From: an uncultured Candidatus Saccharibacteria bacterium
GTDB lineage: Bacteria; Patescibacteriota; Minisyncoccia; Phycocordibacterales; CAIZLB01
Assembly (NCBI GenBank): GCA_964520545.1
Contig: CAZFOD010000001.1
Span: 57,969 to 121,968 of the forward strand
Direction of reading: 5' to 3'
Length of the DNA stretch: 64,000 nucleotides
Under the pieces are notes generated by a model. That model was given only the letters and a program-made list of their open reading frames with translations. It was not told the origin of the DNA and ran no database searches. Position numbers and translations under genes: made by a program. The first letter of the stretch is position 1, and each line of letters starts with the position of its first letter. Of this stretch, positions 4,629 through 35,854 are shown piece after piece.

Positions 4629-5153
4629 TTATTTATTGAACTTAGCTTTGTATGCTGATACCGACTTGTCGAATGCTGCTCGCGCTGCCGCTGCATCTTT
4701 GAATCCATGAGTTTCTACAACTTTGTTTTGAAGCTTTTTGTAAGTAAGGAAGAAGTGGTCGATTTCTTTGAGAGTGTGAGGGTTTACATCAGCAAGATCT
4801 TTCACATTGTCCCATCGAGGATCTTCTTCAGGTACAGCGATGACCTTTGCATCTGAATCACCACCGTCTACCATATCGAGTACAGCAACAGGTCGAACAC
4901 GTACCATTATTCCAGGAACAAGCGGGTATGTTGTAAGTACAACTACATCCAACGGATCACCGTCTTCCCAGAGTGTCTGTGGAACGAATCCATAGTCAAA
5001 AGGATAGTCTTGTGAAGTATGGAGAACACGATCAAGTGCTATGAGACCAGTTTTTTTGTCGATCTCATATTTATTTTTTGATCCCTTATTGATCTCGATG
5101 ATTGTGTTGATGCTTTCCGATGTTCCTGATTCTATATCATGCCAAAGGTTCAT
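4629..5153 (-). CDS. ppa: Inorganic pyrophosphatase, family I. Start trimmed to MNLWHDIE
   Basis: YEIDKKTG, DGDPLDVVVL, and a D(x)DxK-like acidic cluster match family I PPase. The track ORF has a 30-codon basic extension overlapping nusA, so the internal ATG at 5151-5153 is preferred. Confidence 0.8.
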   Translation of the reverse strand: MNLWHDIESGTSESINTIIEINKGSKNKYEIDKKTGLIALDRVLHTSQDYPFDYGFVPQTLWEDGDPLDVVVLTTYPLVPGIMVRVRPVAVLDMVDGGDSDAKVIAVPEEDPRWDNVKDLADVNPHTLKEIDHFFLTYKKLQNKVVETHGFKDAAAARAAFDKSVSAYKAKFNK

Positions 5154-32154: not shown

Positions 32155-32997
32155 ATGAAACGATATAAACCAACAAGCAAGTCACGAAGAAATATGATCA
32201 CCATCTCATACCGAGGTGTGATTACGACTAACGAGCCATACAAGCCTCTTACACATGGTTTTCAGCGATCAGTTGGACGAAACAACACTGGACGCATCAC
32301 CACTCGTCACAAGGGTGCTGGTAACAAACGAATGTATCGAGATATCGACTTTGTTTATGACAAAAAGGATATTCCTGCAAAGATTGTTAGCGTTGAATAC
32401 GATCCAAACCGAACAGCTTTCATTTCTTTGGTAAACTATGCTGATGGTGAAAAGCGATATGTAGTTCTCCCTAAGTCACTTAAGGTCGGTGATACATTTA
32501 TTGTCGGAGAAAAGGTAGAGATTAAGGCTGGTAACCGACTTCCTCTCCGAAACATCCCTGTAGGAACATTTATTTACAACATCGAGGTTAAACCTCTAGG
32601 TGGCGCTAAGCTCGCTCGATCAGCTGGAAACTATGCTGAAGTAGTAGCTCAGGACGAAGGCTTTACTCAGATTAAGATGCCTTCAACAGAAATACGAAAG
32701 ATAAAAGATACTGCATGGGCGTCAGTCGGTGAAGTTTCTAATGATGAGAACAGACTCCAGGCGTATGGTAAAGCTGGACGAAGTCGATGGAAGGGTATTC
32801 GACCAACTGTCCGAGGTACTGCTCAGAACCCAGTGGATCACCCACACGGAGGAGGAGAAGGCCGACAAGGACGAGGACGACGACGAGCAATCTCAGTTTA
32901 CGGAAAGCCTACTGGAAAGGGTCAGAAGTCTCGAACACCAAAGAAATATTCAAACAAGCTCATTGTCTCACGACGAAGAGTTGGAAAGGCAAGATAG
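32155..32997 (+). CDS. rplB: 50S ribosomal protein L2
   Basis: L2 signature (GGGEGR-rich C-terminus, HPHGGG). Confidence 0.95.
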   Translation: MKRYKPTSKSRRNMITISYRGVITTNEPYKPLTHGFQRSVGRNNTGRITTRHKGAGNKRMYRDIDFVYDKKDIPAKIVSVEYDPNRTAFISLVNYADGEKRYVVLPKSLKVGDTFIVGEKVEIKAGNRLPLRNIPVGTFIYNIEVKPLGGAKLARSAGNYAEVVAQDEGFTQIKMPSTEIRKIKDTAWASVGEVSNDENRLQAYGKAGRSRWKGIRPTVRGTAQNPVDHPHGGGEGRQGRGRRRAISVYGKPTGKGQKSRTPKKYSNKLIVSRRRVGKAR

Positions 32998-33003
32998 TTT
33001 CAA

Positions 33004-33030
33004 AAAGGCCCCCACAAGGGGCTTTTTTGT
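33004..33030 (+). terminator. Rho-independent terminator immediately after rplB (aaaggcccc-cacaa-ggggcttt plus T-run), interrupting the S10-spc cluster
   Basis: 9-bp stem plus TTTTTT. Confidence 0.7.
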
Positions 33031-33087
33031 TTCTTGTGACTTTCTGTGTTCACATTGTGTTGCACCGTGATAGAATTATTCATACAG

Positions 33088-33954
33088 ATGAATAAGAATA
33101 TTCTTGTTAAAACAATCTTGGTATTTTCAGGGATCGTCCTCCTTTCTTCAGCAGGGTATCAGGCCGCAAAAGGATATTCGAATCTTTTCCCTCCAGGGTT
33201 TATTGAGACTCTTCCGCCAATCCCAACTAATGATGAGATGAAGGATGAAAAGGATAAGAACAAGAAGAAGCCTCCTTTTAAAAAGACAAAACCTGCTTTG
33301 CGTGAGGATGAGGGAAAAATTACTGAAGACGAAAACTTCTCTGAAGAGAATAACCCAGCTCCTACAGAAGCTGAAAAGAAAGCTTTAGAAGACGCTTTGA
33401 ATGGCGGTGAAGACAAGGGAGGAGGTGGTGGTCAAGAGAAAAAGAATGACCCTAATAACCCCCCGGTACAAAAAGAGGAACCACCAAAGAAGAATTTTCC
33501 TCCTGAGAAGGATATAACAAAAGGGGGTAGTAAGAATGCTCGCGGTACTTCAAACCCAAAAAATCAGGGCGGTACACCTATTCCAAATACGCAAGTTCAT
33601 TTCTATTCATCAACGGAATCAGTTAATGATCCTGGCTCTAGGGCATCTAAAGGTGAGGGGAATAGATCTCTGACTCCTTTGGGTGCAGAAGGGAACGGGC
33701 CAGTATCGGCTGCTTCTAGCTACTACAAGCCAGGAACCAGGGGTACTATCGACATTAACGGTAAGAGGGTGGCATTTGAGGTGAGGGATAGCAATATTAG
33801 CCCTAAAACTGGTCGACCTGTAAACGACAGAATTAACAAGCCAAATTCAATCGAGATCTTCACGAGCCAGAAAAATCCCGGAAGTGGCTTAAGGACGTCG
33901 GGAAACATGACGATTACTCATAACGCAGGGGTTCGCCCGAATTATAGAAGATAA
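33088..33954 (+). CDS. Secreted protein: signal peptide, long K/E/P/G-rich low-complexity linker, and a C-terminal roughly 100-aa domain resembling microbial guanyl-RNases (RNase T1/Sa/barnase superfamily). Start trimmed to MNKNILV
   Basis: The N-terminal hydrophobic signal. C-terminal motifs PGTRGT (compare RNase Sa PGARTRGTRR), GKRVAFEVRD (compare T1 GADRVVFNEN), and MTITHNAGVRPN (compare T1 GVITHTGASGNN). Confidence 0.5.
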   Translation: MNKNILVKTILVFSGIVLLSSAGYQAAKGYSNLFPPGFIETLPPIPTNDEMKDEKDKNKKKPPFKKTKPALREDEGKITEDENFSEENNPAPTEAEKKALEDALNGGEDKGGGGGQEKKNDPNNPPVQKEEPPKKNFPPEKDITKGGSKNARGTSNPKNQGGTPIPNTQVHFYSSTESVNDPGSRASKGEGNRSLTPLGAEGNGPVSAASSYYKPGTRGTIDINGKRVAFEVRDSNISPKTGRPVNDRINKPNSIEIFTSQKNPGSGLRTSGNMTITHNAGVRPNYRR

Positions 33955-33958
33955 ATAT

Positions 33959-34648
33959 ATGACTATATATCAAAAGATATTTGCAGGGTTAGTAGGTGCT
34001 GTCCTCACTGTGGTTCTAATTATTGGCGCCCTATTTGTCTTGAATTCATATTTGGGGTTGAAATTAGAATATTCATGGACTCCTGATCACTCTAAGATTG
34101 AAACACCTTCACAAATATACGCGAAAGTAATTGAAGACCTTTCTCCAGAGGTAAACGGTACAACTACGGACTATGTTTTGAAATTTTATAACGGCGAGAA
34201 CGCTATAAGTAGCTACATTGCTGTACCTGTAGAAAGTTTGGTCGCAACAGGCGATGGAAAATTAGCCATCGCAATATATGACGGTAGTAGCGAGGAAAAT
34301 TTAAAGGCCACTTATATCGCTGAAGTAATTGAAGACGAGTCTGCGATGAGCGCGGCTAATAATAATCGTCGTCCACCATTTATCGGACCGATTGTGCCTA
34401 ATGGGGAAGTTTGTTTCTACAATAACGATTCAAAGATAGAAGAATGTGATAAGCGATACAGGTACACAATAGATTGGAGTCCTGACAATGATGATATTTT
34501 TCCGCCATGGCAAGAAGCTGAAGCGTTGGGACCTCTGTTATATATGGATGAATTTGCAGATACAGATGTGTATGTTCGCAAACACATCCCAATTGATATT
34601 CGTTTGATACCAGAAAGTGCCACCACTTTTACATTCGGTAGGCAATAA
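33959..34648 (+). CDS. Membrane-anchored protein (N-terminal TM helix, extracytoplasmic domain), 229 aa. Candidate partner or immunity protein of the upstream gene
   Basis: Starts 5 nt after the previous stop. Single N-terminal TM. No recognisable motif. Confidence 0.5.
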   Translation: MTIYQKIFAGLVGAVLTVVLIIGALFVLNSYLGLKLEYSWTPDHSKIETPSQIYAKVIEDLSPEVNGTTTDYVLKFYNGENAISSYIAVPVESLVATGDGKLAIAIYDGSSEENLKATYIAEVIEDESAMSAANNNRRPPFIGPIVPNGEVCFYNNDSKIEECDKRYRYTIDWSPDNDDIFPPWQEAEALGPLLYMDEFADTDVYVRKHIPIDIRLIPESATTFTFGRQ

Positions 34649-34810
34649 TACGGCTATACAGAGCCATATATGCAGGGCAAAGCCTTAATTGACTTTTCTC
34701 GGTAAATGGTGTATAGTTATGACTAGGAATAGATAGATTCTTTGAAAGAGAACTTTTTTTAACACTGTTGATTTGACTGATTTACTCAGACAAATCTGAT
34801 CAATAGTGTT

Positions 34811-35251
34811 ATGAAAAGAACCACCCAAAATACAGTGGCCACCTTTCGTGGCCTCATGGCGATTCTCATCGCCTTCGTTGTTATCGCAACCCCTTCAACT
34901 GGGTGTGCGAAAGAAAAAAACAAAAACCCTACAACCCTTGGTAACCTTGGCAGTGTCAACATTTACCGCATTGAGTCAGTAGTGCGGGAAGATGAAAACG
35001 GGGCAACCATTACCTACGTAACGCTTCAAGCAAACGGGTCATGGTCCAAGGAGCTGAAGAAAAGCGATGTCCCCTACGTTCAACACTTCAAGGGGCAGTA
35101 CTTCTCGGGAGTGAGCGCTCCCGAGGGGCTCATTACCCTGATGTTCTTCTCGGAGAACGACTCCAGTGCCTGTGACGCCGCCCTAAAGCAACGTCCTGAC
35201 AAGGGGGAAACGGTGCTCTGGATTCGGAAGGCCCTGATAAGCTCGAACTGA
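34811..35251 (+). CDS. Putative lipoprotein (signal peptide with lipobox STGC), 146 aa, GC-rich
   Basis: N-terminal signal plus Cys lipobox. Higher GC than flanks. Confidence 0.5.
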   Translation: MKRTTQNTVATFRGLMAILIAFVVIATPSTGCAKEKNKNPTTLGNLGSVNIYRIESVVREDENGATITYVTLQANGSWSKELKKSDVPYVQHFKGQYFSGVSAPEGLITLMFFSENDSSACDAALKQRPDKGETVLWIRKALISSN

Positions 35252-35308
35252 CGGGAATCCTTCAAGGAAATACACGATTGGCGGGGTTTAACCCCCTTCA
35301 GTTGTAAG

Positions 35309-35339
35309 GCGCGCAACCACCCCTGGTTGCGCGTTTTTC
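35309..35339 (+). terminator. Rho-independent terminator (gcgcaacca-cccc-tggttgcgc plus TTTTT) closing the inserted cassette
   Basis: 9-bp stem plus U-tract. Confidence 0.75.
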
Positions 35340-35345
35340 TTATAT

Positions 35346-35373
35346 TTGACAGGGTATTTTTTTCTGATAGTAT
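35346..35373 (+). promoter_or_regulatory. Sigma70-like promoter TTGACA-16-TAGTAT restarting the ribosomal cluster, followed by a roughly 130-nt structured leader (9-bp stem ctctgttgg/ccaacagag)
   Basis: -35 at 35346-35351, -10 at 35368-35373. The leader hairpin is at 35391-35447. Confidence 0.55.
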
Positions 35374-35506
35374 ACGAGGACAAGCTCTGTTGGGGCTATT
35401 ATTTTTCGCCAACGCGAAGGATAAACGAAAATACCAACAGAGAAGCGTCTCAAACCCGCTTTCCTAGGTTCCTCACGGAATCCGGTGACTTCGAAGACAC
35501 ACCAAC

Positions 35507-35854
35507 ATGACACGATCACTAAAGAAAGGACCATACGTTGAAGAGAAGCTCTTGAAGAAAATCGAGGGCAAAAAACCCACAGATACTGGGGTTATTAAGA
35601 CATGGTACCGACGAAGCCAGATCTCTCCGGAGATGGTAGGTTTCATTTTTGGTGTTCACAACGGTCGACAGCATGTTGAAGTACTTGTCTCAGAAGAAAT
35701 GGTAGGTCACCGACTTGGAGAATTCTCACCTACACGAAAGTTCATCCGACACGGAGGTAAGATGCAGAAAGAGCTCGATCAGGCTAAGAAAGACTCTGAA
35801 ATCGCATCAGCTAAGGCTGCAAAGACAGCCACAGATGCCGCTCCAAAGAAATAA
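35507..35854 (+). CDS. rpsS: 30S ribosomal protein S19 with an A/K-rich C-terminal tail
   Basis: S19 signature ([12 protein letters not shown]...HNGRQHV). Confidence 0.95.

Follow-up and report, generated by a model that had tools for sequence, protein, structure and literature searches.

The 64-kb stretch of DNA analysed here (hereafter the window) comes from a Patescibacteria genome and includes its tuf-S10-spc ribosomal cluster; the closest uL2 matches are Paceibacteria/Parcubacteria metagenome-assembled genomes at 67-82% identity. The genes rplB (uL2; 32155-32997, plus strand, recognised by Pfam Ribosomal_L2_N/C on an identical contig) and rpsS (uS19; 35507-35854, plus strand), the conserved left and right flanks of the region studied, are spaced 2509 bp apart, whereas the remaining S10/spc junctions in the window measure 1-37 bp. 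Between them lie three open reading frames (ORFs), all on the plus strand as well: ORF1 (33088-33954, 288 amino acids (aa)), ORF2 (33959-34648, 229 aa) and ORF3 (34811-35251, 146 aa). The cassette is preceded by an intrinsic-terminator-like hairpin 3' of rplB (33001-33029, plus strand, 12 bp stem followed by a T-run) and followed by a terminator-like hairpin 3' of ORF3 (35306-35337, plus strand, 14 bp stem). A consensus scan identified plus-strand promoter-like sites in front of ORF1-ORF2 (TTCACA-16-TGATAGAAT, 33049-33076), ORF3 (TTGACT-17-TATAGT, 34689-34717) and rpsS (TTGACA-16-(TG)ATAGTAT, 35346-35373), the last of these followed by the rpsS leader (35374-35506, plus strand). These coordinates agree with the original prediction, made from the window sequence, of three genes between rplB and rpsS, of terminators after rplB and after the last cassette gene, and of a TTGACA-16-TAGTAT promoter ahead of rpsS.

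Using uL2, we gathered 80 species-level relatives (L001-L080), in which the lengths of all junctions in the ribosomal cluster were measured. Among the 69 relatives with both genes, the rplB-rpsS gap had a median of 809 bp and a maximum of 7152 bp; it exceeded 300 bp in 50 and 1 kb in 32 of them. Elsewhere in the cluster, gaps longer than 300 bp were found at rpsJ-rplC (22/75 relatives) and tuf-rpsJ (12/73), and the remaining ten junctions had at most one such gap each (one at rplW-rplB, one at rpsC-rplP). A terminator was identified 3' of rplB in 35 of the 69 relatives. The cargo of the rplB-rpsS gap is unrelated between species and includes DUF3298 and PG_binding_1 proteins, CAP, PemK toxins, a nucleotidyltransferase pair, a reverse transcriptase, patatin, a sigma factor, a mechanosensitive channel, a GIY-YIG-like ORF and rplJ-rplL; the rplJ gene (L10) lies between rplB and rpsS at 9805-10669 in L061, where rplL (L7/L12) follows, and at about 9565-10483 in L074. 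Out of 95 cargo ORFs, the GC content at third codon positions (GC3) was more than 0.15 above that of the ribosomal protein genes of the same genome in 22 and more than 0.15 below it in 3, which suggests that part of the cargo may derive from GC-richer sources. We conclude with high confidence that the rplB-rpsS junction is an ancestral operon boundary and a hotspot throughout the clade. In the literature searched, no interruption between rplB and rpsS was described for the Candidate Phyla Radiation (CPR). Searches of the 80 relatives' loci with tblastn and local hidden Markov models revealed no homologs of ORF1, ORF2 or ORF3. The cassette had been proposed to be an insertion, a proposal that its presence in all relatives would have contradicted; since it is missing from all 80, the lineage-specific insertion stands. 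Nor is the interruption peculiar to this genome, as 50 of the 69 relatives have a gap of more than 300 bp at the same junction.

The right-hand boundary of the hotspot is conserved. The motif TTGACA-N15-18-T[AG]NNAT was found at most 260 nucleotides (nt) upstream of rpsS in 54 of the 69 relatives, even in those with gaps of just 45-150 bp, and relatives whose cargo is unrelated can still be aligned over the promoter and the first part of the leader. Because of this conservation, the promoter and leader were not brought in by the cassette; they had been described as "fresh" elements restarting the cluster at rpsS, and are instead ancestral to the clade, present with other cargo or almost none. 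The leader in the window folds better than its shuffled versions (z = -2.7). It has a predicted 5'-proximal hairpin (35383-35397) with a U-run reaching to about 35406, and an alternative long-range helix (35385-35393/35434-35442) encloses a hairpin at 35399-35409/35414-35424, with the U-run able to pair instead into this downstream hairpin. A hairpin followed by a U-run was detected in 32 of 57 distinct leaders, compared to 0.77 ± 0.82 in shuffled sequences; in 30 of these 32 it starts 9-12 nt past the -10 hexamer, and in the other two 5 nt past it. Moreover, the leader stems covary (AGCTC/GAGCT, GCCGCC/GGCGGC, TCCGCC/GGCGGA and AAGCGT/ACGCTT), and a search of Rfam gave just a sub-threshold chance match for the region. 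The hairpin may serve the rpsS-rplV-rpsC unit as an attenuator or as a stabiliser of its 5' end.

Orthologs of the cassette occupy the same rplB-rpsS site in the close relatives L081-L083 and L085, with 99% ribosomal protein identity to the window, and in L084, with 89%; the cassette is limited to this genus-level group. Gene order 1-2-3 is kept down to 40-53% aa identity. The ratio of nonsynonymous to synonymous substitution rates (dN/dS) relative to L081 was 0.10 for ORF1, 0.10 for ORF2 and 0.11 for ORF3; hence all three are real genes under purifying selection. ORF2 starts 4 nt downstream of ORF1. The -10 element in front of ORF1 ends only 11 nt 5' of the ATG, with no Shine-Dalgarno sequence visible, so the predicted ORF1-ORF2 mRNA would be leaderless or nearly so. 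Both hexamers of the ORF1 promoter are conserved in L081 and L085, and both hexamers of the ORF3 promoter in L081, L085 and L084, despite protein identity of approximately 40% in the latter. As the hexamers are kept in relatives, the cassette is predicted to consist of two transcription units, ORF1-ORF2 and ORF3.

The cassette is considerably more divergent than its surroundings. Between the window and L081-L083, six ribosomal proteins share 99% identity, compared to 82-86% for the cassette proteins. Sliding nucleotide comparison showed 95-100% identity in the flanks and 60-88% from about 33040 to 35260, and the non-coding segment 35263-35506 is 98-100% identical to the relatives. The identity steps are sharp and lie just 3' of the rplB terminator and just 5' of the ORF3 terminator, so that the hairpin at 33001-33029 falls within the high-identity left flank and the one at 35306-35337 within the right. 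The genes of the cassette have a synonymous divergence (dS) of 0.58-1.08, compared to 0.07-0.25 for those on either side. The window contains no integrase, and neither direct nor inverted repeats were found around the cassette. This pattern would fit an old or imported allele, through either homologous exchange of the block or long-term maintenance of divergent alleles, and does not appear to fit site-specific insertion.

All three cassette proteins open with a hydrophobic export or anchor segment at the N-terminus. In ORF1 this putative signal peptide or anchor is followed by a low-complexity linker of approximately 137 aa, rich in K, P, E, N and G, by a junction motif (KDITKGGSKNARG, 33508-33546, plus strand) shortly before the C-terminal domain, and by this domain of 128 aa (33568-33951, plus strand), which belongs to an uncharacterised family and which we refer to as the head. 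The description of the first protein as secreted, with a low-complexity linker and a C-terminal domain, was thereby borne out. The three proteins are nearly orphans: among 5.8 billion proteins searched, matches came from this genome and from two to four close relatives only. With the head as query, phmmer against 1.84 billion representative sequences found homologs only in P0009, P0012 and P0014 (E = 2e-7, 2.4e-5 and 8.4e-4; query residues 5-117 aligned), each of which consists of an N-terminal pilin domain of the type IV secretion system (T4SS; PF18895, T4SS_pilin), a linker and then an ORF1-type head. A VirB4-like ATPase gene precedes that of P0014 by approximately 1.9 kb, two genes lie in between, and yidC and rnpA are nearby. 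Scanning metagenomes with the head alignment yielded one further locus, essentially that of P0014, and two short matches, and scans of viral contigs with the head and ORF2 alignments gave no matches. A 2025 survey of T4SS in Patescibacteria described VirB2-like pilins as abundant and variable, most genomes with such pilins having no recognisable VirB1 wall hydrolase, for which other glycosidases may stand in (PMC12102498).

The six-sequence alignment of the head family has eighteen invariant columns (Y13, E17, G31, S47, A49-Y53, G56, T57, V72, D74, N76, G82, V85, N86 and T99), which include two carboxylates (E17 and D74), two Asn and three Tyr. Such residues are typical of carbohydrate-active or carbohydrate-binding sites, and we infer a possible function of this kind for the head. 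The AlphaFold2 model of the head, built from a five-sequence alignment, is all-beta, with six strands and no helix, and is unreliable (predicted local distance difference test (pLDDT) 39.4). Judged by its sequence, the head appears to be a new domain, about 110 aa long and so far uncharacterised, common to ORF1 and the T4SS pilin fusions.

The genome of L084 provided a second form of the cassette. Two tandem three-gene cassettes, parted by a minus-strand PMT_2 glycosyltransferase gene, are located between rplB and rpsS (L084 1-7100). Copy A is orthologous to the cassette in the window. Gene 1 of copy B retains the signal peptide, a Pro-rich linker and the junction motif and ends in a different C-terminal domain. 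The motif, NDPNDWKD.TKG.KQ.ARG in L084, is common to ORF1 (its counterpart described above) and both L084 gene-1 paralogs, and a 60-nt block at the junction (L084 877-936 versus 4751-4810) has 77% nucleotide identity between these paralogs. The copy B head has a Cys...His pattern, and one and the same stretch of it gave three independent, weak matches to wall hydrolases: Pfam NLPC_P60 (E = 0.0038), a PHROG endolysin (E = 7.5e-4) and PDB 7cfl. Gene 2 of copy B is a paralog of ORF2 (32-39% identity) in its N-terminal half and diverges towards the C-terminus, and between its gene 3 and ORF3 no similarity was detectable. Gene 1 thus probably encodes a modular protein on which heads can be exchanged, the only alternative head so far looking like a peptidoglycan hydrolase.

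ORF2 has one N-terminal transmembrane segment, as originally described, and an ectodomain with two invariant Cys. ORF3 combines an N-terminal hydrophobic segment with a lipobox-like STGC. Its GC content of 0.517 confirms that the gene is GC-rich, and its GC3 of 0.62 is the highest of the 72 ORFs in the window (mean 0.39, standard deviation 0.07). The assignment of ORF3 as a lipoprotein is doubtful, because the lipobox Cys is replaced by Tyr in 86-87% identical orthologs (STGY in L081 and L085); in L084 the motif reads QTAC. Gene 3 has a GC3 of 0.61-0.72 in every copy of the cassette, including the sequence-unrelated gene of L084 copy B (window 34811-35251; L081 2096-2539; L084 2211-2651 and 6308-6754), compared to 0.25-0.45 in genes 1 and 2 and in the ribosomal protein genes. 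Since tuf has no high GC3, this is not simple expression-linked codon bias, and a test for mRNA structure was inconsistent (z = -1.1 in the window, -3.1 in L084). A second ORF of outlying composition (GC3 0.61; GC content at first codon positions 0.66) was observed at 1805-2521 of the window. Scans of all cassette proteins against PHROGs, NCBIfam and PADLOC found nothing besides the weak endolysin match of the L084 paralog.

The explanation that we favour, with a probability of about 0.5, combines an ancestral boundary hotspot with a three-gene module acting on the envelope. The rplB terminator and the rpsS promoter with its 5' hairpin leader constitute an ancestral operon boundary turned into an accessory-gene hotspot, where cargo would be tolerated by virtue of its position between terminator and promoter and where the extremely conserved flanks would ease cargo replacement by recombination. 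In the window, the cargo would be a fast-evolving module of three orphan genes working outside the cytoplasm. ORF1 would be exported or tethered: its signal peptide would lead into a disordered spacer and the conserved junction motif, and the exchangeable head at its C-terminus may act on envelope glycan or peptidoglycan, either of its own cell or of a partner cell. ORF2, membrane-anchored and present in both cassette types, and ORF3 could be the partners of the head, serving as an extracytoplasmic inhibitor or immunity protein or as a regulator or adaptor. It appears that alleles of the entire cassette are swapped, presumably by recombination, or kept as one block, with the conserved flanks on either side. 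A more far-reaching version, in which the boundary is a clade-wide site of cargo exchange with the ribosomal genes as homology arms for recombining foreign or allelic DNA and the cassette encodes a new extracellular effector family, shared with T4SS pilin fusions, that contacts or attacks the partner envelope, with its own immunity or adaptor proteins, appears rather unlikely at present.

Several observations weigh against the favoured explanation. The head has no family match in Pfam, NCBIfam, PHROGs, PADLOC or PDB sequences, the models of the head and of the ORF2 ectodomain (five sequences, pLDDT 39.8) are of too low confidence to be usable, and the argument for an envelope enzyme is consequently drawn from context; we consider an envelope-directed enzymatic activity of the head tentative, with odds somewhat below even. 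The NlpC/P60 matches of L084 copy B are below the curated cut-offs, and the domain swap is known from one genome with two head types. That ORF2 and ORF3 serve as immunity proteins or partners is conjectural and, in our estimate, doubtful. In addition, weaker codon constraint than in the ribosomal protein genes could partly raise the dS of the cassette, although the near-identity of the non-coding leader between the relatives speaks against this being the only cause.

The main rival is that ORF1 is a non-enzymatic adhesin or lectin whose head binds a glycan of the host or partner, with ORF2 and ORF3 as accessory surface proteins. A head placed on a long flexible spacer or fused to VirB2-like pilins would suit such a role, its invariant Tyr and Asn are compatible with sugar binding, and the rapid evolution and divergent allele block are as expected of host-interface proteins. 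Furthermore, the role is vacant, as no adhesin homologs were found in Patescibacteria T4SS loci (PMC12102498). The enzyme-like NlpC/P60 head at the same position in the paralogous cassette argues against this alternative, and the invariant carboxylates E17 and D74 suggest, without proving, catalysis; we consider an adhesin unlikely, albeit the most serious competitor of the envelope-acting module.

Less probable still is that the head represents a divergent double-psi beta-barrel lytic transglycosylase of the RlpA/3D/MltA type. The order of its conserved motifs presumably resembles that of the double-psi beta-barrel fold, which we take as a lead only, and the low-confidence AlphaFold2 model is, as noted, all-beta with six strands. 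Against this, Pfam searches with five members of the family matched neither DPBB_1 nor 3D at E≤10, and probabilities below 1% were obtained in hhalign with two unverified query sequences, a segment of RlpA and a consensus of the 3D type. It is improbable, too, that the three ORFs are unrelated or decaying hitch-hikers in a permissive gap, without a joint function. The heterogeneous cargo in relatives (toxin-antitoxin toxins, reverse transcriptase, rplJ-rplL) and the separate promoter and deviant GC3 of ORF3 would agree with hitch-hiking, but dN/dS is approximately 0.1 for all three genes, their promoters and order are conserved, the latter to 40-53% aa identity, and the triplet architecture is duplicated as a unit in L084.

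According to the original prediction, the head was an RNase T1/Sa-like domain and ORF1 a toxin or nutrient-scavenging nuclease with downstream partner or immunity proteins. What speaks for a secreted guanyl-specific RNase (T1/Sa/barnase) is the signal peptide, the small size of the secreted domain (about 100 aa) and the short spaced motifs PGTRGT, GKRVAFEVRD and ITHNAGV, a resemblance that we found not to be above chance. The RNase T1/Sa reading is not supported, as the head has no sequence or profile similarity to these enzymes and the catalytic residues are not conserved. At E≤10, the head matched no Pfam family, PF00545 included, and no RNase in PDB searches with the single sequence (phmmer) or with the family profile, the PDB library containing both RNase Sa and RNase T1. 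With the head family alignment, hhalign gave a probability of 0.12% against RNase T1 and 0.05% against RNase Sa, for which the queries were confirmed as full-length matches to PDB entries. The fold of the superfamily is alpha+beta, with a helix packed on an antiparallel sheet; the head model, for which Foldseek returned only PDB matches with E>1, is too unreliable for a comparison with it. In the head homologs, PGTRGT of ORF1 is replaced by NGTEGV or GGTVIY, GKRV by DGTK or TGTY, and ITHN by ITKF, VVKV or IVYT. The Arg, Arg and His that had been equated with RNase residues vary even in the 40%-identical ortholog, and no His or Arg is invariant across the six-sequence alignment. Barstar-type inhibitors work in the cytoplasm, whereas ORF2 and ORF3 are exported or membrane-anchored. 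Hence the cassette differs from RNase T1/Sa/barnase systems in lacking detectable similarity, the catalytic Glu/Arg/His set and a cytoplasmic inhibitor gene; the head is very probably not an RNase of the T1/Sa type, and an RNase toxin with its immunity proteins is a most improbable account of the locus.

The S10 cluster is a textbook case of fixed gene order, and its contiguity is taken for granted in CPR phylogenies based on the ribosomal protein block and in the checking of genome bins. In this clade, the cluster appears to be split into two transcription units, with variable, partly foreign-looking cargo between them in about 70% of the species. The junction thus offers a concrete and easily found site for studying accessory-gene flow in ultra-small symbionts. 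Moreover, the exported head domain bridges a free-standing secreted protein and T4SS pilin fusions and is in this respect a candidate component of the episymbiont-host interface, while the conserved hairpin before rpsS is a candidate for a new regulatory leader of ribosomal proteins.

Polymorphic effector-immunity systems, among which T6SS Tse1/Tsi1 (type VI secretion system) and CdiA-CT/CdiI are known and in which wall-targeting effectors are countered by extracytoplasmic immunity proteins, resemble the cassette in joining varied C-terminal domains, via a conserved junction motif, to an unchanging N-terminal part, in small downstream genes that diverge together with the head, and in rapid evolution with a divergent allele block. 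In contrast to these systems, the export signal of ORF1 is of the Sec type only, with no type V, VI or VII secretion system, RHS or LXG domain; only two head types are found, and two genes follow downstream, one of them with its own promoter. The T4SS loci of Patescibacteria, with their VirB2-like pilins (PF18895), are linked to ORF1 by the homology of its head to the C-terminal extension of three pilins; ORF1 nevertheless has no pilin domain and the cassette is located outside a T4SS locus. In monoderms, VirB1-type wall hydrolases include TraG of pIP501 and PrgK (PMC12102498), and the ORF1 head, unlike these analogues, has no similarity to their SLT, CHAP or M23 domains.

Accessory hotspots between core genes are known from the pneumococcal cps locus (dexB-aliA) and the O-antigen locus (galF-gnd). 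They share with the rplB-rpsS junction unrelated cargo at a fixed site, conserved flanks and an abrupt step in divergence; here, however, the flanks are ribosomal protein genes within the S10 cluster, and the cargo is 0.3-7 kb long and functionally heterogeneous. The E. coli S10 operon leader is subject to L4-mediated attenuation and, like the rpsS leader, contains a terminator-like hairpin in the 5' leader of a ribosomal protein transcription unit. In contrast to E. coli, the hairpin described here precedes rpsS and not rpsJ, is separated from the predicted start of transcription by only about 3-5 nt and has no match in Rfam. Neither modular secreted effectors nor hotspots flanked by conserved core genes are thus new as such; the novelty lies in a position within the S10 cluster, in the extent across the clade, in a conserved boundary of promoter and hairpin and in an uncharacterised head domain shared with T4SS pilin fusions.

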